NCBI GenBank assembly: GCA_024239035.1
Contig: JANBVK010000001.1
Coordinates: 423,062 to 487,061 of the forward strand
Source of the DNA: Patescibacteria group bacterium
GTDB taxonomy: Bacteria > Patescibacteriota > Minisyncoccia > UBA6257 > GWB1-50-10
DNA: 64,000 bases
Reading direction: 5' to 3'
Positions 26,430 to 35,615 of the stretch are shown here, piece by piece; within the stretch, counting starts at the first letter, position 1; each line of letters opens with the position of its first letter. The notes beneath the pieces are model-generated. The model worked only from the letters and a program-made list of their open reading frames with translations, did not search any database and was not told the origin of the DNA. The position numbers were made by a program, and so were the translations under genes.

Positions 26430-26468
26430 AGAAATAAAACACCCCGCAAGACATTCGCCTTGCGGGGC
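26430..26468 (-). terminator. rho-independent terminator of the SPFH/NfeD-like operon
   Basis: Hairpin ccccgcaag / cttgcgggg. On the minus strand it is followed by a T-rich tract. Confidence 0.6.
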
Positions 26469-26474
26469 TTACTA

Positions 26475-27335
26475 CTAACTACCTTTTGGTAAAGCTGATA
26501 TGGTCACCGAAGTGGTTACCCCGCTTTTTGAGTGGATATCCACAGCGAATCCGGGAATTACATCCACAGCGCTCTCGCCGTCGCGGACAAGTTCCCCGTT
26601 GATATACGCTTCCCCATCAGGCGCTATATCAAACACCCTACCATCGAGAAGACGCATTTCGATGGTATCGTCGGGTATGGTTTGCAACCAGTGGCGGAAA
26701 GGGATAGCTACCCTAACCCACACACTGTCAACCTCAATCGTCTGGGGGGTTGATGTAGCAGAAACCGTTCTCGCTGTCGCTGGTTGTGCTGCTGCTGGCT
26801 GTGCGTCGCCGCTGAACCACCCTTTCCACTTCTCAAACCACCCTTCAGTATTTACTCCGCTCACCATAAGAATGACGATTAGACTGAAGGCGAGGCCTGC
26901 TGATCCTTTTCCTACAGTCCCGGCATCGATTGGTATGCCGGTTGGTTTGAACAATGTTACAATGACCGCAGGTAGGGGGACAAGGAAAAGGGATACGGTT
27001 GAAAGAATAACCGCAGCGGCCAATTTCGATACCCCCATAAAATCAGCTAACCTTCCAAGGTTGGTGTAGCCGAGCCACCCTAGATACAAGTAGAAGCCAA
27101 GCAGCAGGATGAAGATAGCTAGCCCGCTTACTAACTTGTTTTCGAGGAAACTCTTGAGCCTTTCTGCTGGTAGTTTCCATGCTGCTATCCCAATAGCGAT
27201 AGCAACTGCCACTGGTAACCAGAAGAATGATAGGATTGTAAAGAGCGGCTTGAAAACCAACCATAGGAGTCCGACGAGGATGCCGGCCGCCGGTATAGCT
27301 AAGAGCCAACGTCGGCCTTTAGTGACATGAGTCAC
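26475..27335 (-). CDS. polytopic membrane protein with a C-terminal soluble beta-rich domain (possible NfeD-like partner of the SPFH protein)
   Basis: Five hydrophobic helices followed by a soluble domain of about 130 aa. It sits immediately downstream of the SPFH gene in the same operon, the usual SPFH-NfeD arrangement. GC content is higher than the neighbouring sequence. Confidence 0.3.
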   Translation of the reverse strand: MTHVTKGRRWLLAIPAAGILVGLLWLVFKPLFTILSFFWLPVAVAIAIGIAAWKLPAERLKSFLENKLVSGLAIFILLLGFYLYLGWLGYTNLGRLADFMGVSKLAAAVILSTVSLFLVPLPAVIVTLFKPTGIPIDAGTVGKGSAGLAFSLIVILMVSGVNTEGWFEKWKGWFSGDAQPAAAQPATARTVSATSTPQTIEVDSVWVRVAIPFRHWLQTIPDDTIEMRLLDGRVFDIAPDGEAYINGELVRDGESAVDVIPGFAVDIHSKSGVTTSVTISALPKGS

Positions 27336-27343
27336 GATTCACC

Positions 27344-28330
27344 TCACTTTCGTTCCAGAAGTTCTTGGAGTTTGCCCAGGAAGCTTTCAGCTTCGCTTGG
27401 TGCGGCCGTACTTTCTGCCTCTTTCCTCTCTTGCCGTCGGGTTTCCAACCGCTCTCGGTTGATGTCCCGAAGCGTTGTCGCCACTGTTGAAACCGACTGG
27501 GCAATAGCCGCTGGCATGTTTCCGCGAAGCGGTTCTGACACCGCTTGCGCTACCGAGCCAGCCTCGTGAGCTTTAGCGTCAGCCAGTTCCCTAATACGGG
27601 AAGCTTCGGACTGAACCATCTCATTGTAGTCGTAGACGTCAATGCCGACGACTTCGTAACCGCTGTGGAACTCCATAGGCTCACCAGGAGCGATTTCCAC
27701 TAGCACTGGTTTTTTGAGCTTTTCGTTGGTTTTTCTCTGTACCTCCTGTGCTACATCATCTTCTGATTCGAGGAGTTGTTTAAATGTCCTTTTGCCCAGT
27801 TCAGCCCTCAATGAGGCAAAAGTTGTTGACTCAATGTCTGCCCTTGATTCGGGTGTGTTGAGCCCACCGTAAGAGCGCAGAGCGTGATAGGGGACAGTGA
27901 GACGGAAGAACACCCTCATAAAGACCTCGATGGCTATCTTCCTATCCCCATCAATGTAGTAGAGTTTTTGCTTTTCGTTCTCTTCGTTGTCGTGCAGACG
28001 TTGCCGTGCAGTGGTTTCGTGCTCAATAGAGTGAAATGGCCAGAAAGTAAGCCACCAGCCCTTCTTGAGTTTACGGATGGCTCTTCCGAAGAGGAAGAGG
28101 ATGGCTACTTCCGGCTCCCTGACGATGTAGAGAGCGATGAGGAAATAGAGAAAGGCGAGAGAGATGAAGATGAGCGCCTGAGGTCCTTTGCCGAAAAAGG
28201 CAAGGATGAGACCGAGGAATAGGATTGAGAGAAAAACAACCCAACCAATCCACAGCGGACCTTCGGGTAGGTCTTCTTCGGGCGAGGATGGGGACTGAGG
28301 AACGAGGTTCTTTAGGAATTCCCAGTTCAT
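27344..28330 (-). CDS. SPFH/band 7 (stomatin/prohibitin-like) membrane protein
   Basis: N-terminal transmembrane helices, then an SPFH core (EPEVAILFLFGRAIRKLKKGWWLTFWPF) and a long C-terminal coiled-coil Ala/Glu-rich tail. Confidence 0.55.
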   Translation of the reverse strand: MNWEFLKNLVPQSPSSPEEDLPEGPLWIGWVVFLSILFLGLILAFFGKGPQALIFISLAFLYFLIALYIVREPEVAILFLFGRAIRKLKKGWWLTFWPFHSIEHETTARQRLHDNEENEKQKLYYIDGDRKIAIEVFMRVFFRLTVPYHALRSYGGLNTPESRADIESTTFASLRAELGKRTFKQLLESEDDVAQEVQRKTNEKLKKPVLVEIAPGEPMEFHSGYEVVGIDVYDYNEMVQSEASRIRELADAKAHEAGSVAQAVSEPLRGNMPAAIAQSVSTVATTLRDINRERLETRRQERKEAESTAAPSEAESFLGKLQELLERK

Positions 28331-28392
28331 ATTGTGCTCCTACCCATAGGGCGTATAGTGTCAGTGATATTCAAATGCCAAATTTCTATTTT

Positions 28393-28427
28393 ATAATATA
28401 TCATAGAGTATATAGTTTGTCAAATTA
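28393..28427 (-). promoter_or_regulatory. promoter cassette copy 1 (TTGACA-17-TATATT on the minus strand) driving the SPFH operon
   Basis: 35-bp block ATAATATATCATAGAGTATATAGTTTGTCAAATTA. The same block recurs at 28806 and 29531. Read on the minus strand it is TTGACA, a 17-nt spacer, then TATATT. Confidence 0.65.
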
Positions 28428-28446
28428 CAGTTTTTAGTAACAGTTT

Positions 28447-28487
28447 ATGAAAAAAGTAACACCATCAGTTTATGCTGATGGTGTTAC
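28447..28487 (-). terminator. terminator of the Cys-rich miniprotein gene
   Basis: Hairpin gtaacaccatcag / ctgatggtgttac flanked by A/T runs. On the minus strand it is followed by TTTTTT. Confidence 0.6.
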
Positions 28488-28519
28488 ATTAAAAAAAACG
28501 CGTATGCGGTGTAAAGCAT

Positions 28520-28744
28520 TTAAACCCAACCGCTTCCGCCGCACGCGCTGCACCGTCCATTGCCACCGCAACCACTACACTTTCCACCGCCTCGGCAATG
28601 CTGACAAGTCTCCTTCGGCATCCAAGGCTTGTGGATATTACCTTCCCCCCTGCAGTTTATGCAGATGCCTTTTCCATAACACTTGAAGCATTTTCCTTTT
28701 CCTCCTCTGCACAATTGGCACTCTTTTTTTTCGTGCTGAGACAT
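28520..28744 (-). CDS. 74-aa cysteine-rich miniprotein with six DnaJ-type CxxCxGxG zinc-finger repeats
   Basis: Sequence MSQHEKKECQLCRGGKGKCFKCYGKGICINCRGEGN...CQHCRGGGKCSGCGGNGRCSACGGSG, giving six CxxC(x)G(x)G units. It has its own copy of the promoter cassette and its own terminator. Confidence 0.6.
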   Translation of the reverse strand: MSQHEKKECQLCRGGKGKCFKCYGKGICINCRGEGNIHKPWMPKETCQHCRGGGKCSGCGGNGRCSACGGSGWV

Positions 28745-28805
28745 GATTGTCCTCTCTGCTTATAGGGCTCGTGTTTTCAGAACTTGGAACTTAAGTTTCT
28801 AATTC

Positions 28806-28840
28806 ATAATATATCATAGAGCATATAGTTTGTCAAATTA
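28806..28840 (-). promoter_or_regulatory. promoter cassette copy 2 (one mismatch) driving the Cys-rich miniprotein gene
   Basis: Sequence ATAATATATCATAGAGCATATAGTTTGTCAAATTA. Confidence 0.65.
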
Positions 28841-28970
28841 AAGCTTCTTTGTCTTTGAAAAGAGAAACGCCACCAATAAGAAAAAGCCCCTACGATTTAT
28901 TTGTCGCAAGGGCCTGATTCCTCTATGTGCCCACCAAAAGGTGGGTAATAGAAATCCAGTGCTAGGGTTA

Positions 28971-29468
28971 CTACTCGCTGGAGATGGCGATACGGTCGCT
29001 CCGGAAGAGATATGCGTTATTGTACCCATTCTCCAAAAGGTACCAGCGGCATTTCCAGTATCCACCCATCTGAGGGAGGCTTAAGCCGAGCCGTCCATAG
29101 TCATGGTTGGAATCTACCACAACTATACCTGGGAAAAGAATAGAAATACTACCGCGGAGCGCTACTAATTCAGGGAATTCGTTTTGATGTTCTACGAGCC
29201 AGGCAGCGTGCTGATAACCAAGTAGGAAATCTAGCTTCGGTGCGATGCGGCACTCATACTCAAATGGGTTGATATAATCCTCATCGTCCCGCAGAATAGT
29301 GCCTAGTCGGAATGTAACCTCCCCCGTTGGAGAACTATCCCGCTCAATCCTCTTAATTGAGGAACGATCCATTCGGACGTTCTCTAGGGTTGGCCGCCGA
29401 AGACCTGGGATCTGTAACGTGAGTTCATCAGCTAGGATGATAGCCTCAGCAGTTGGCTGTTGTGACAT
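28971..29468 (-). CDS. hypothetical protein (165 aa) under promoter cassette copy 3
   Basis: ORF with an upstream GGAGG Shine-Dalgarno sequence. No recognisable motifs. GC-richer than neighbouring genes. Confidence 0.45.
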   Translation of the reverse strand: MSQQPTAEAIILADELTLQIPGLRRPTLENVRMDRSSIKRIERDSSPTGEVTFRLGTILRDDEDYINPFEYECRIAPKLDFLLGYQHAAWLVEHQNEFPELVALRGSISILFPGIVVVDSNHDYGRLGLSLPQMGGYWKCRWYLLENGYNNAYLFRSDRIAISSE

Positions 29469-29530
29469 GTTCTCTCCTCCTTATGTCAAGTATTGTTAGT
29501 TACCCATCTTCAACTGTAAGTTTCTGGTTC

Positions 29531-29583
29531 ATAATATATCATAGAGTATATAGTTTGTCAAATTAAGGTTTAGGTTATATAAT
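29531..29583. promoter_or_regulatory. promoter cassette copy 3; bidirectional
   Basis: On the minus strand TTGACA-17-TATATT serves the 165-aa gene. On the plus strand TTGTCA, a 17-nt spacer, then TATAAT (29555..29583) sits about 40 nt upstream of tRNA-Leu. The shared TTTGTCAAA core is a near-palindrome used as the -35 element in both directions. Confidence 0.55.
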
Positions 29584-29621: not shown

Positions 29622-29703
29622 GCCGAAGTGGCGGAATTGGCAGACGCGCCAGGTTTAGGACCTGGTGGGGAAACCCGTGAGAGTTCGAGTCTCTCCTTCG
29701 GCA
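29622..29703 (+). tRNA. tRNA-Leu(TAG), type II with a long variable arm
   Basis: Acceptor stem gccgaag/cttcggc. Anticodon stem ccagg/cctgg with loop ttTAGga. T-arm gagag-ttcgagt-ctctc. CCA is not encoded. Confidence 0.8.
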
Positions 29704-29704
29704 C

Positions 29705-29897
29705 ACCTGAAATTTTAGATGCCTTTTGTGGTATCTAAAATTTTATCTGAAGGTAGGGAATCGAACACGAAGGGGGGTCGGGGGAAAGTTTGAGGTTCCC
29801 CCGTGTTGGAAATTATTCAAAACCGAGGGTTGTGAAAGCGCACCGAGCACATAAAGCCTTATGTGCTCGGGAGCAGTGAGATTCTCTCCTTCGGCAC
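29705..29897 (+). repeat. tRNA-trailer element copy A
   Basis: Order: AT-rich hairpin (29710..29743), conserved core (29752..29838), GC hairpin (29843..29870), then a 15-nt duplicate of the tRNA-Leu 3' end (29883..29897). The core is about 80 percent identical to the 63596..63683 core on the opposite strand downstream of tRNA-Ser. Confidence 0.6.
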
Positions 29898-32144: not shown

Positions 32145-33989
32145 ATGAAAACGTTTAGCAAAAATCTGTTTTGGGCAATCGCGACGTTTATTTTAATAAC
32201 GATTGTCTTTTCATTGCTCTTTAACTTAGGCACCCAAAAGCCGCCGGTGCTGAGCATTAATGAGGTGGTAAAGAAAATTAACGCCGGAGAAGTTAAAAGT
32301 ATTGCAGTATCCGGCGACTCCTTGGAACTTGTTTTGCAAGATGAGAGCAAGGCTGTCTCACAAAAAGAAGAAGAGACAAGTTTAACTGAAACTTTCAGCA
32401 ACTTCGGCGTTGAGTCCCAAGCACTCCAGTCCGTTGAACTCACCGTTAAAGAAGAAGGCGGAGTGAGGTTTTGGCTTGGAATTCTTATTCCAACCCTGCT
32501 TCCGATAATCATCATAGTTCTAATTTTTTGGTGGATTTTTCGTCAGGCAAAAACCGGTGTCAATCAGGCATTTTCTTTTGGTAAGGTAAATTTAAAATTA
32601 TTCACCCCTTCGCGCAAGAAAACAACCTTTAAAGACGTAGCCGGTCTTAAAGAATCTAAGGAAGAGTTAGAAGAAATTGTTGATTTCTTAAAGAGTCCAA
32701 AAAAATTCTTGGACATTGGGGCTCGAATTCCAAGAGGAGTCCTTTTAATGGGTCCACCAGGAACGGGGAAAACGCTTTTAGCCCGCGCAGTTGCCGGTGA
32801 ATCAAACGTTCCCTTCTTTCATATTTCTGCTTCAGAGTTTGTTGAAATGTTTGTTGGGGTTGGCGCGAGCCGCGTGCGAGACCTTTTTAAAACCGCGAAA
32901 AAAGCATCTCCGTCCATTATATTTATTGATGAGATTGATGCGGTTGGCCGCGAACGCGGCGCGGGTTTGGGCGGCGGACATGATGAGAGGGAACAGACCC
33001 TAAACCAAATTTTAGTTGAGATGGACGGGTTTGACAGAGATACAAATGTAATTGTTATGGCGGCAACAAACCGTCCAGATATTTTGGATCCGGCACTGCT
33101 CCGTCCCGGTAGGTTTGACAGGCGGGTTATTTTAGATATGCCTGACATCAATGATCGGGAGGCGATTTTAAAAATCCACGCCAGAGGCAAGCAACTTGAT
33201 AAGTCAGTAAATCTTAAAGCTGTAGGGGTAAGAACGCCGGGATTCTCCGGTGCAGATTTAGCAAACCTGGTAAACGAAGCCGCAATTTTAGCTGCTCACT
33301 CTAATCGTAAGCACATTACCCAGAATGATTTCTTTGAATCGGTTGAAAAAGTTATGCTTGGACCTGAGCGGAAAAGCAGGGTTGTTTCAGAAAGAGAAAG
33401 AGAGATAACTGCCTATCATGAAGCGGGGCATGCGCTTGTAGCGGCGAGTTTAAAAGACTCTGATCCGGTTCATAAGGTTTCTGTTGTGAGCCGAGGTATT
33501 GCCGGCGGGTACACACTGAAACTTCCCACCGAAGAGCGGAGACTAAAAACTAAAGCACAGTTTTTGGCAGATCTCGCAGTCGCCTTTGGCGGGTACGCCG
33601 CAGAACTTTTAAAGTTTAAAGATCTCTCAACAGGTTCATCTAATGACATTCACCAGGCAACCGCCCTCGCTCATAGGCTGGTTACTCAATATGGGATGAG
33701 TGATAAATTAGGACCCCGAACGTTTGGCAAAACCCAAGAGATGGTGTTTTTGGGCAGGGAGATTTCGACAGAAAAGGATTATTCGGAAGAGGTCGCTTCA
33801 CAAATTGACGAAGAAGTGAACAGTTTGATTAATAAAGCGCTTTCAGCCGCAAAGAGAATCGTATCTACCAAGAGACGGGTACTTGAGAAAATCGCCAAAA
33901 CGCTCATCGAGAAAGAAACGCTCGAGCAGAAGGAATTTTACAAAATCATAAAAAGCTTTAAACTAAGGCCGGTAAGGGTAGTAGGGTAG
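32145..33989 (+). CDS. ftsH: ATP-dependent zinc metalloprotease FtsH
   Basis: Two N-terminal transmembrane helices. Walker A motif GPPGTGKT is present. The second region of homology region is present. The zinc-binding HEAGHALV motif is present. Confidence 0.9.
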
Positions 33990-33992
33990 TGA

Positions 33993-34064
33993 CGGGCATG
34001 TAGCTCAATGGCAGAGCGCCAAGCTTATACCTTGGTGGTTCCTGGTTCGAATCCAGGCATGCCC
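33993..34064 (+). tRNA. tRNA-Ile(TAT) (anticodon UAU, an AUA decoder)
   Basis: Acceptor stem gggcatg/catgccc. D-arm gctc-aatggca-gagc. Anticodon stem ccaag/cttgg with loop ctTATac. T-arm cctgg-ttcgaat-ccagg. Confidence 0.65.
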
Positions 34065-34084
34065 ACCCTAATAAAATAATTAGA

Positions 34085-34301: not shown

Positions 34302-35195
34302 TTATTTTCTTCTGCGAGCGTGAAACGCTTCGTGTATGTCCCGGAGGTCTTTATTGGTGAGATGGGTGTAAACTTGAGTAGTTGAGATGTTCGCGTGGCC
34401 TAGAAGTTCCTGCACCGAGCGAAGGTCGGCACCGTTTATAAGGAGATCGGTTGCGAATGAATGGCGAAGCTGGTGAACATGCACCTTTTTGGGAATACCG
34501 GCTTGTCGTCCTCGAAGGTCTACTGCTCTTTGCACTGCCCGTGGTGTAATGCGGTCGAGCGCACCACCACTTCTTGAGAGACTTATAAATAATGCTTCAT
34601 TAGCATCTTCTCGTTTGTCTAAATATTTCTTGAGCGCTCGCTTTGTACCAACGGATAAAAAAACAACCCTTAACTTGTCTCCCTTACCGCGTACGGAAAT
34701 TTCCCCGCGACTCATATCTATTTTACGGTTTAAACTACAGAGTTCTGAGAGACGAAGACCGGTTGAAAATAAAGTTTCTAAAATTGCTCTGTCGCGAAGT
34801 GAACGTAGATCATTGCCCTTTGGAGCTTGGAGCAATCGCTCAAGCTCGTTGTAATCCAACGTTTCGATGTCCCTCCTCACAACTTTTGGAAGCTCAATAG
34901 TTTCAGGCGGTAATACCTTAATACCGCGTTTCACAAGATATTTTAAGAAGTTTCTGAGAGCAATTACGTAGTAACTTTGAGTGATTTTTTTAAGTTTACC
35001 CCGGCCGAGCAATATGCGGAAATCTCGAATCACTTCTTGAGTGATTTCTTTAGGAGAACGAATGTGGGATTTTTCTATAAATACACGAAGATATTGTTCG
35101 TAATTCTCCCGTGTTTTTGGGGAGCGGTTTTTTTCAATTTCTAGGTAATCAAGATAATCTTTTAATAATTTTTCTATTTCAGACATTAATTTCAT
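34302..35195 (-). CDS. tyrosine recombinase XerC/XerD family
   Basis: The C-terminal catalytic region HQLRHSFATDLLINGADLRSVQELLGHANISTTQVYTHL carries the R..HxxR..Y residues. The probable start is MKLMSEIEKLL (35195) rather than the 35399 extension. It lies 40 bp from the tRNA-Val 3' end. Confidence 0.8.
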   Translation of the reverse strand: MKLMSEIEKLLKDYLDYLEIEKNRSPKTRENYEQYLRVFIEKSHIRSPKEITQEVIRDFRILLGRGKLKKITQSYYVIALRNFLKYLVKRGIKVLPPETIELPKVVRRDIETLDYNELERLLQAPKGNDLRSLRDRAILETLFSTGLRLSELCSLNRKIDMSRGEISVRGKGDKLRVVFLSVGTKRALKKYLDKREDANEALFISLSRSGGALDRITPRAVQRAVDLRGRQAGIPKKVHVHQLRHSFATDLLINGADLRSVQELLGHANISTTQVYTHLTNKDLRDIHEAFHARRRK

Positions 35196-35348
35196 TATAT
35201 CAGAAGTGTCGTAAAAGGAGGATTGTTGCGTCAAAAATTCTTTTGACGCAAAATCCCGCGGAGATCTTACAACGCCTTGAAAAATGCCATAAAATCTCCA
35301 TCTTTGACATTTTTTCGCTTTTATAGTAGCCTTGTATTTAACATCTAA

Positions 35349-35615
35349 ATGCTCTCTAAAAGAAAGAAACAGTTTGCTATTAAGGAATACCAAAAACATA
35401 AGACTGATACGGGATCCGCGGAAGTACAGGTTGGGCTTTTGACGAAGCGGATTAAAGAATTAGCGGATCATCTAAAAAAGCACCCGAAAGATCACCATTC
35501 TCGACGGGGACTTTTGATAATGGTGGGTAAACGTAGAAAGTTTTTACAATACCTTCGTCGGGAAAATGAAAAAGTTTACGATAAACTGGCGAAGAAACTA
35601 AAATTAGAGGTTTAA
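35349..35615 (+). CDS. rpsO: 30S ribosomal protein S15
   Basis: 88 aa. [48 protein letters not shown] matches S15. Confidence 0.85.

Follow-up and report, generated by a model that had tools for sequence, protein, structure and literature searches.

A predicted stand-alone protein of six DnaJ-type zinc knuckles, missed by annotation and encoded upstream of an SPFH gene in a Patescibacteria genome

Within a 64,000-nucleotide stretch of a Patescibacteria metagenome-assembled genome (assembly GCA_024239035.1, contig JANBVK010000001.1, positions 423,062 to 487,061; hereafter, the window), a small minus-strand gene at 28520..28744 encodes a 74-amino-acid cysteine-rich protein, MSQHEKKECQLCRGGKGKCFKCYGKGICINCRGEGNIHKPWMPKETCQHCRGGGKCSGCGGNGRCSACGGSGWV, which we call the miniprotein. 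Its 12 Cys residues are paired (C9/C12, C19/C22, C28/C31, C47/C50, C56/C59, and C65/C68) in six CxxC-G-G zinc-knuckle units, laid out as three units, a linker, and three more units (the 3+3 form). Five of the six match CxxCxGxG exactly, and the first, CQLCRGGKG, has one residue inserted. The linker between the two triplets consists of 11 residues (NIHKPWMPKET), and the C-terminal part (residues 47 to 74, CQHCRGGGKCSGCGGNGRCSACGGSG) ends in CGGSGWV. All six units quoted in an earlier note on this DNA were found in the translation, and the open reading frame (ORF) is stand-alone, as the note had said. Across the six frames of the window, it is the sole ORF of at least 30 amino acids that has four or more CxxC motifs.

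The gene has expression signals of its own. A Shine-Dalgarno-like GAGAGGA (28750..28756, minus strand), read from the sequence, lies 5 nt ahead of the ATG, and the Shine-Dalgarno sequences of two adjacent sister units at the equivalent position are AGGAG and AAGGAGGAG. Farther upstream, a promoter block (28792..28846, minus strand) comprises TTGACA (28836..28831), a 17-nt spacer with TG, and TATATT (ending at 28808), i.e., a near-consensus sigma70-like promoter with an extended −10 element. An intrinsic terminator (28446..28487, minus strand; hairpin and T-run at 28487..28456) with a 13-bp stem, a 6-nt loop, and a T-run follows the gene, and the predicted mRNA is monocistronic, about 355 nt long, and starts near 28801. 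An orthologous hairpin follows the miniprotein gene of L084, a 1.35-kb metagenome contig. The gene had been credited with its own copy of a consensus promoter and its own terminator; the private promoter copy and the terminator are there, but a genome-wide consensus is not, as the block of about 55 nt occurs in three copies in the 64 kb, all within 1.2 kb. Therefore, the "consensus promoter" is a locally duplicated module.

The miniprotein was not called by NCBI PGAP or in the ENA or Logan gene calls of the source genome (whose scaffold measures 729,382 bp), and an exact-sequence look-up did not find it in public gene catalogues. The NCBI neighbors KJI72_02330 and KJI72_02340 flank an SPFH gene, and, as we read the locus-tag spacing, the miniprotein site is left unannotated. 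The orthologue on L084 is 71% identical, with 34 of 204 aligned nucleotides different, and it retains 12 of 12 Cys and 15 of 17 Gly residues. When 34 substitutions were placed at random in a permutation test, the P value for keeping every Cys residue was 0.0019, and that for keeping every Cys together with at least 15 Gly residues was 3e-5. All 12 Cys residues are also invariant in the full-length homologues P0003, P0004, P0017, and P0040, the first three of which, at 40 to 42% identity, retain in addition the C-terminal CxxCxGxGW[VI]; the homologues lie in unrelated contigs whose GC contents range from 33 to 58%. The earlier note had named a lack of conserved Cys spacing in homologues as a refuting outcome; the Cys residues are kept in the L084 orthologue and in four distant homologues. 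In a second lineage (P0017 on contig L105 compared with P0040 on contig L110), the ratio of nonsynonymous to synonymous substitution rates (dN/dS) is 0.27, third codon positions hold 27 of the 55 differences, and stop codons interrupt every antisense frame in both.

The competing idea that there is no gene here, either because the ORF arose by chance or because an ORF for 79 amino acids on the opposite strand (28447..28686, plus strand) is the real one, draws on the silence of the three annotation pipelines and on a crude dN/dS of 0.75 between the window and L084, with a nominally lower value of 0.48 for the antisense frame. The ratio of 0.75 is uninformative on its own because the positions other than Cys and Gly are free to vary. 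Against this idea stand the nonrandom conservation of Cys and Gly, the lower ratio and closed antisense frames of the second lineage, the homologues in contigs of such different GC content, and the promoter, ribosome-binding site, and terminator, all of which face the minus strand. The plus-strand ORF itself had been dismissed as spurious, and we concur: its ATG falls inside the minus-strand terminator, with the T-run on one side and the hairpin on the other, no Shine-Dalgarno sequence precedes it, and its L084 counterpart has an internal stop codon and a different N terminus. We regard the non-gene reading as effectively excluded; it is nearly certain that 28520..28744 encodes a real protein, is under selection, and was overlooked by the annotation pipelines.

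Relatives of the miniprotein are hard to find. A word-indexed search with the single sequence returned no homologues, and relatives were recovered only by a full HMMER scan and by profile search. Among 1.84 billion representatives, the HMMER scan found 39 matches at E ≤ 1e-3, many of them larger proteins of tandem CxxCxGxGxC repeats, several with signal- or lipoprotein-like N termini, and only a few of them stand-alone proteins of 66 to 92 amino acids. The stand-alone 3+3 form is therefore rare, with a handful of members among billions of proteins. Searches of viral contigs, phage records, and plasmid records found no relatives, and the promoter block was absent from the viral contigs, although the BLAST low-complexity filter may have blunted the last two of these searches. 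A defense-system or phage-gene reading has no support, PADLOC and PHROGs being empty for the miniprotein and its three neighbors. Rfam placed no RNA family over the miniprotein gene or the promoter blocks.

The Pfam scan of the query detected no J-domain or other domain (DnaJ and DnaJ_C included), as the earlier note had anticipated, and only one model was matched at all, DUF7895 (PF25433; E = 0.0028, 18.4 bits versus a cutoff of 27), over residues 18 to 40 and model positions 4 to 26 of 75. The DnaJ zinc-finger model PF00684 gave no match at E ≤ 1 (its gathering threshold is 32.7 bits), and BSD2_CRD gave none either. In NCBIfam, the best model was anti-TRAP RtpA (NF058604; E = 0.02, 15 bits versus a cutoff of 65), and phmmer against PDB ranked anti-TRAP (3LCZ, E = 0.28) ahead of the DnaJ cysteine-rich (CR) domain (1EXK, E = 1.5). 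When PDB was searched with a family profile built from four sequences, DNAJA2 was matched at E = 0.0058 and the CR domain of E. coli DnaJ at E = 0.012. Among 11 relatives, DUF7895 was matched by 10 (counted at E ≤ 1; best E = 2.7e-8), PF00684 by 6 (best E = 2.3e-6), Anti-TRAP (PF15777) by 6, and BSD2_CRD (PF25436) by 1 (E = 5.8e-4). In a separate scan of the larger repeat proteins, all PF00684 matches were below the cutoff (e.g., P0021 at 25.1 bits). By these sequence comparisons, the miniprotein belongs to a family next to DUF7895, whose curated cutoff it does not reach.

The AlphaFold (AF2) model, with a predicted local distance difference test (pLDDT) score of 84, is one long hairpin. Its top Foldseek match was 1EXK (E = 6.9e-4, probability 0.98), and the zinc finger of DNAJA3 (2CTT) and BSD2 (6EKB, E = 0.011) came next. 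The proposed check with DnaJ CXXCXGXG profiles was thus positive at the level of the superfamily, through Foldseek, the family profile, and the relatives, and negative for the query itself against PF00684. We consider it highly likely that the product is a DnaJ-CR-type zinc-knuckle protein without a J-domain.

In the model, DSSP assigned a beta-hairpin at residues 36 to 39 and 42 to 46 and single bridges at residues 8, 18, and 27 and at 55, 64, and 73. With the outermost bridge paired with the outermost, the positions sum to 81 or 82, and the model therefore describes one antiparallel hairpin in which motif 1 faces 6, 2 faces 5, and 3 faces 4. The CR domain of DnaJ has a corresponding topology, with motif 1 paired with 4 and motif 2 with 3. 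The chain would thus fold back at the linker into a single two-stranded hairpin, and the nested pairing of knuckles could form three Zn(Cys)4 centers; the predicted fold would be the DnaJ CR design plus one rung, with the variable linker loop as its tip. On the strength of the model, we find three zinc ions in this nested topology rather probable. Family members differ most in the linker, where P0017 and P0040 have an insertion of about 20 residues.

In the window, the next same-strand gene after the miniprotein (27344..28330, minus strand) encodes a 328-amino-acid SPFH/Band-7 membrane scaffold (SPFH-A; Pfam Band_7 E = 7e-7), which NCBI names SPFH domain-containing protein. An SPFH gene recurs at this place. 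In L084, a gene for a second SPFH paralogue, SPFH-B, lies two cassettes downstream of the miniprotein behind the same promoter block, and the protein that starts in this third cassette is 40% identical to the SPFH protein of L105 (E = 4e-22). On L105 (33% GC, with a PaaX-like neighbor), P0017 is followed 54 nt on by a gene for a 306-amino-acid Band_7 protein (E = 2.6e-16), with no terminator seen between them, and on L110, a Hainich groundwater contig, P0040 is followed 56 nt on by the same SPFH-B N terminus. The two genes, miniprotein and SPFH, appear to make up one operon in the L105/L110 lineage. A 3+3 miniprotein gene thus lies upstream of a same-strand SPFH gene in four of four informative Patescibacteria-like loci from two lineages, and two SPFH paralogues are involved, as SPFH-A and SPFH-B do not align by BLASTP. 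The link to SPFH, at first a guess from one locus, has gained strength from this adjacency.

The promoter block (TTGACA-17-TGaTATATT plus flanks, about 55 nt; TTGACAAAYWATATRCTCTATGATATATTAT) occurs once for each of three adjacent minus-strand units and nowhere else in the window, and its copies are 87 to 91% identical. Copy 2 (28379..28433, minus strand; 87% identical over 55 nt) drives the SPFH operon, and copy 3 (29517..29571, minus strand; 91% identical) drives a gene for a 165-amino-acid orphan (28971..29468, minus strand; NCBI KJI72_02340, hypothetical), which has its own terminator (28915..28884). No homologue of the orphan was found in 80 related Paceibacteria loci, and it has no Pfam, NCBIfam, PHROG, or PADLOC match. 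The order of units in the window is the 165-amino-acid orphan, the miniprotein, and SPFH-A with a 286-amino-acid partner; in L084, it is the miniprotein, a 131-amino-acid orphan, and SPFH-B, with two block copies located after the miniprotein (about 293 to 345) and after the next gene (about 886 to 938). The 131-amino-acid orphan (L084 397 to 792) is a different protein in an equivalent cassette. A homologous terminator hairpin (AACGCCACCAG...CTGGTGGCGTT) stands ahead of four of the five block copies. Upstream of the SPFH-A orthologues in the related loci L016 and L025, there is an orthologous promoter, related yet far less similar.

The shared block implies common transcriptional control, and since cassette content differs between the window and its close relative L084, the module may mark a set of co-regulated genes and serve as a recombination point. 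Only a weak AT-rich operator-like palindrome was seen in the promoter spacer. The start of one Logan contig (L107) falls some 90 nt ahead of SPFH-A, on or close to the block, and the repeat may have broken the assembly there. A divergent tRNA-Leu promoter (TTGTCA-17-TATAAT, 29555 to 29583, plus strand) overlaps the −35 element of the promoter of the 165-amino-acid gene (29561 to 29533, minus strand), so that the two promoters stand back to back and have a few bases in common.

The SPFH operon continues with a GTG-start gene (26475..27335, minus strand) that begins 8 nt past the SPFH stop codon and ends ahead of an operon terminator at 26441..26468 (minus strand). Its 286-amino-acid product has predicted N-terminal transmembrane helices and a beta-rich C-terminal domain, and it is conserved beside SPFH-A in L016, L025, L108, and L109. 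NCBI annotates it as 187 amino acids (MCP6720144.1), and the ORF with the GTG start includes the N-terminal transmembrane helices; the longer form is probably right because the L108 and L109 orthologues align over the full length. The two neighbors had been labeled an SPFH/NfeD pair. The SPFH half of this label stands (Band_7 at 29.9 bits versus a cutoff of 23.6), but the NfeD half is unproven: the partner has no Pfam, NCBIfam, PHROG, or PADLOC match, NfeD (PF01957) included, the Pfam and NCBIfam scans having been read at E ≤ 0.1 or E ≤ 1. Its single-sequence AF2 model (pLDDT 54, with the C-terminal part below 50) is too poor for fold comparison. An apt label is SPFH operon partner of unknown family, NfeD-like in architecture alone.

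The wider surroundings are of an ordinary chromosomal kind, with genes for FolD, SHMT, S1, GyrA, a solute-binding protein, three type IV secretion system (T4SS)-type pilins, FtsH, PNPase, NusA, and Hsp20, and the GyrA sequence, 73 to 75% identical to that of Candidatus Jorgensenbacteria, places the window in the Patescibacteria (Paceibacteria). The order of a lactamase-fold gene, a 145-amino-acid gene, gyrA, the solute-binding protein gene, and the pilin genes is conserved in about 60 to 79 of 80 related loci. The three pilin genes (PF18895; 25089 to 26349, plus strand), which follow gyrA and the solute-binding protein gene, are tandem paralogues; this arrangement is kept in about 60 to 70 of the 80 loci, and L016, L025, and L108 show the pilin cluster itself. 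SPFH-A and its membrane partner hold the same post-pilin position in L025, L108, and L109 and, more distantly, in L016. The miniprotein and the 165-amino-acid orphan were absent from all 80 scanned Paceibacteria loci around gyrA, and an SPFH protein scan of species-representative genome contigs gave no match. As the relatives' SPFH-A loci lack the miniprotein, the miniprotein and the 165-amino-acid gene are extra units between SPFH-A and tRNA-Leu.

The 3′ end of this tRNA-Leu(tag) (29682 to 29704, plus strand) is repeated 193 bp downstream (29875 to 29897, 87% identity), and the repeat looks like an att-type scar of an integrated element. In L025, a tyrosine-recombinase-like gene lies just past the equivalent spot, after SPFH. 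Elsewhere in the window, the ftsH gene (32145..33989, 3.4 kb from the miniprotein) is directly followed by tRNA-Ile (anticodon TAT; 33994 to 34067, plus strand), tRNA-Val(tac), and a tyrosine recombinase gene (34302 to 35399; Phage_integrase).

Placement upstream of SPFH suggests a role in membrane-protein handling, which the earlier note had offered as a guess alongside stress response; both are conjectural. We propose that the miniprotein may be a small ATP-independent module that binds clients or partners (a holdase or adaptor), much as the J-less four-motif proteins ZnJ2/BSD2 have DnaK-independent holding-chaperone activity (PMC5818400), and that in Patescibacteria it might work with SPFH/Band-7 scaffolds in membrane-protein quality control. 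Since the strong promoter block is shared, the miniprotein and the SPFH operon would be expressed jointly, and the variable hairpin tip would be the likely contact surface. Flotillin (SPFH) microdomains confine and stabilize unfolded membrane-associated proteins (PMC11222466), and FIP, a plant DnaJ-like zinc-finger protein, binds FtsH5 (PMC5915565). The explanation that we judge best overall, a real gene for a DnaJ-type zinc fold that acts as an SPFH-linked binding module, commands about as much belief as doubt. The specific role of a holdase or adaptor coupled to SPFH, considered separately, is tentative. A bolder version, in which a rigid three-zinc rod would be a soluble partner of the SPFH cage that holds or delivers clients or tunes FtsH access and is carried in an array of single-gene cassettes, set apart by the repeated terminator-promoter module and shuffled by recombination between close relatives, is speculative and rather unlikely.

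Several observations weigh against an SPFH-linked module of this kind. Both in the window and in L084, a separate terminator follows the miniprotein gene, which lies outside the SPFH operon; no miniprotein precedes the SPFH-A orthologues or homologues in L016, L025, L108, and L109; and no fusion of SPFH with CxxCxGxG repeats occurs among 10 larger matches. Three members of higher GC content (P0003, P0004, and P0046) have no nearby SPFH gene and lie amid toxin-antitoxin and restriction-modification genes: P0004 (in the group with 55 to 58% GC) adjoins pentapeptide, ASCH, and type IIG restriction-modification genes, P0003 adjoins genes for an amine oxidase and for PIN and Uma2 nucleases, and P0046 adjoins genes for QueC and the toxin BrnT. 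Because these homologues sit among accessory genes, we take the pattern as a hint that the family travels with the flexible genome. The higher-GC contexts examined were L001 (886 to 1244), L003 (4949 to 5510), and L102 (6001 to 6907); in L001 and L002, the miniprotein gene shares its 3′ end with an overlapping 58-amino-acid ORF. To these points are added the dN/dS of only 0.75 for the window and L084 pair and the failure of the query to reach any curated Pfam or NCBIfam threshold.

The main rival to the SPFH-linked module holds that, instead of a general holdase, the miniprotein would inhibit or regulate a single target, as anti-TRAP and the anti-sigma-G factor Gin do. The tip would then provide specificity, and the target could be either SPFH associated (e.g., FtsH) or unrelated. 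Anti-TRAP was the best single-sequence match in both PDB and NCBIfam, its Pfam model was matched by 6 of the 11 relatives, and the family profile matched Gin weakly (E = 0.46). The variability of the linker, including the insertions in P0017 and P0040, would suit a specificity loop, and the patchy phyletic spread, with higher-GC members beside type IIG restriction-modification, PIN, Uma2, and BrnT genes, also counts in favor. All of these matches are nevertheless far under the family cutoffs, anti-TRAP differs in architecture (two motifs, one zinc, trimers or dodecamers), the context of a TRAP gene, T-box, or sigma-G is absent, and no candidate target is common to all contexts. We therefore think such an inhibitor unlikely, if still a serious contender.

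Less likely than the inhibitor is a metal or redox buffer, i.e., a metallothionein-like zinc (or rubredoxin-style iron) store or a sacrificial thiol/zinc redox switch, highly expressed in an organism with few oxidative-stress defenses. A Cys content of 16%, which allows for up to three M(Cys)4 sites within the 74 residues, a promoter whose near-consensus, extended −10 form suggests high expression, the in vitro thiol-disulfide oxidoreductase activity of DnaJ CR domains (background in PMC5818400), and the Hsp20 and FtsH genes in the same window would all fit a buffer. The strict CxxCxGxG periodicity and conserved Gly residues, however, indicate a knuckle fold and not a metallothionein cluster, Pfam gave no metallothionein or rubredoxin match, and the recurrent SPFH adjacency would be left unexplained. 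Redox chemistry is also not necessary to the fold, because a Cys-deficient ZnJ2 mutant kept its holdase activity and ZnJ2 induced no disulfide formation (PMC5818400); a buffer thus seems improbable. The Gly-, Cys-, and Ser-rich C-terminal half (residues 47 to 74) superficially resembles the cores of microcin B17 or SCIFF peptides, which could make the gene a precursor of a ribosomally synthesized and post-translationally modified peptide. Yet there is no division into leader and core, invariant Cys motifs run from one end of the chain to the other and occupy both halves, the hairpin is confidently predicted, and no YcaO, cyclodehydratase, radical-SAM, protease, or exporter gene adjoins the miniprotein in the window, L001, L003, L084, L102, or L105. 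A peptide precursor is effectively excluded.

Whatever its exact role, a conserved and selected small gene was missed by every pipeline in a reduced Patescibacteria genome, where each retained gene likely matters. A three-zinc nested hairpin, if true, would add a third metal rung to the two of the DnaJ zinc-finger design and provide a compact scaffold. Little is yet established about which clients and regulators bacterial SPFH scaffolds have, and placement upstream of two SPFH paralogues leads to the specific hypothesis of a new SPFH accessory factor. Of the side findings, the least expected is the repeated terminator-promoter module, through which co-regulation and cassette exchange could be approached in unculturable organisms. 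In our assessment, the surprise is moderate, as the fold family is well known, the family is rare, and its function is inferred.

Among known systems, the best fold and profile match is the DnaJ CR domain (1EXK, DNAJA2/A3, PF00684), which has the same CxxCxGxG knuckle and whose design the predicted hairpin, with its nested pairing and tip beta-hairpin, appears to follow. The DnaJ domain has four motifs and two zinc ions, whereas the miniprotein has six motifs and presumably three zinc ions, and its knuckles, unlike those of DnaJ, stand back to back (CxxCxGxGxC) with almost no spacer. Class A J-domain proteins also have a J-domain with HPD, a G/F region, and C-terminal substrate-binding domains. 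Because the miniprotein lacks all of these, it cannot be an Hsp70 co-chaperone.

Closer in organization are the plastid J-less proteins (BSD2/ZnJ2 [6EKB, PF25436], LQY1, PSA2, OR, and FIP), which are likewise small, with a CR zinc finger as the sole recognizable module; those of the BSD2/ZnJ2 type are DnaK-independent holdases or assembly factors. The binding of FIP to FtsH5 parallels the SPFH/FtsH neighborhood of the miniprotein. These proteins are, however, eukaryotic and plastid targeted, have four motifs and usually a transit peptide or membrane anchor, and show no evidence of orthology with the miniprotein; BSD2 works in the context of RbcL assembly, whereas the source genome here is that of a nonphotosynthetic patescibacterium. 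The earlier note had described isolated DnaJ zinc-center proteins as known mostly from plastids; they are not confined to plastids, as there is a bacterial precedent, Bacillus anti-TRAP (RtpA; 3LCZ, PF15777, NF058604), and a Pfam DUF for such tandem repeats. Anti-TRAP is likewise a stand-alone DnaJ-type knuckle miniprotein of about 53 amino acids, but its two motifs and one zinc build trimers or dodecamers that block TRAP, whereas the miniprotein has six knuckles and no trp, TRAP, or T-box context. DUF7895, an uncharacterized domain of about 75 residues in tandem CxxCxGxG proteins, is near the miniprotein in length, but many larger matches of this type carry extra repeats or regions, unlike the stand-alone 3+3 form.

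As for the SPFH side, small accessory genes recur beside SPFH genes (NfeD; B. subtilis YdjG/YdjH) and are thought to work with the scaffold (PMC2636767, PMC4208085, and PMC8581546); a partner of a zinc or Cys-rich type goes unmentioned in the 2009 SPFH operon survey, in which the words "zinc" and "cysteine" do not occur. NfeD itself resides in the membrane and combines an OB-fold with, in some cases, a protease domain, whereas the miniprotein is predicted to be soluble and zinc based and is encoded upstream of SPFH. The DnaJ zinc-finger fold family and a Pfam DUF that covers tandem repeats of this kind are already known, and what is new is the stand-alone 3+3 architecture with probably three zinc ions, its rarity and absence from annotation, its recurrent coupling with SPFH in Patescibacteria, and the repeated terminator-promoter cassette module.

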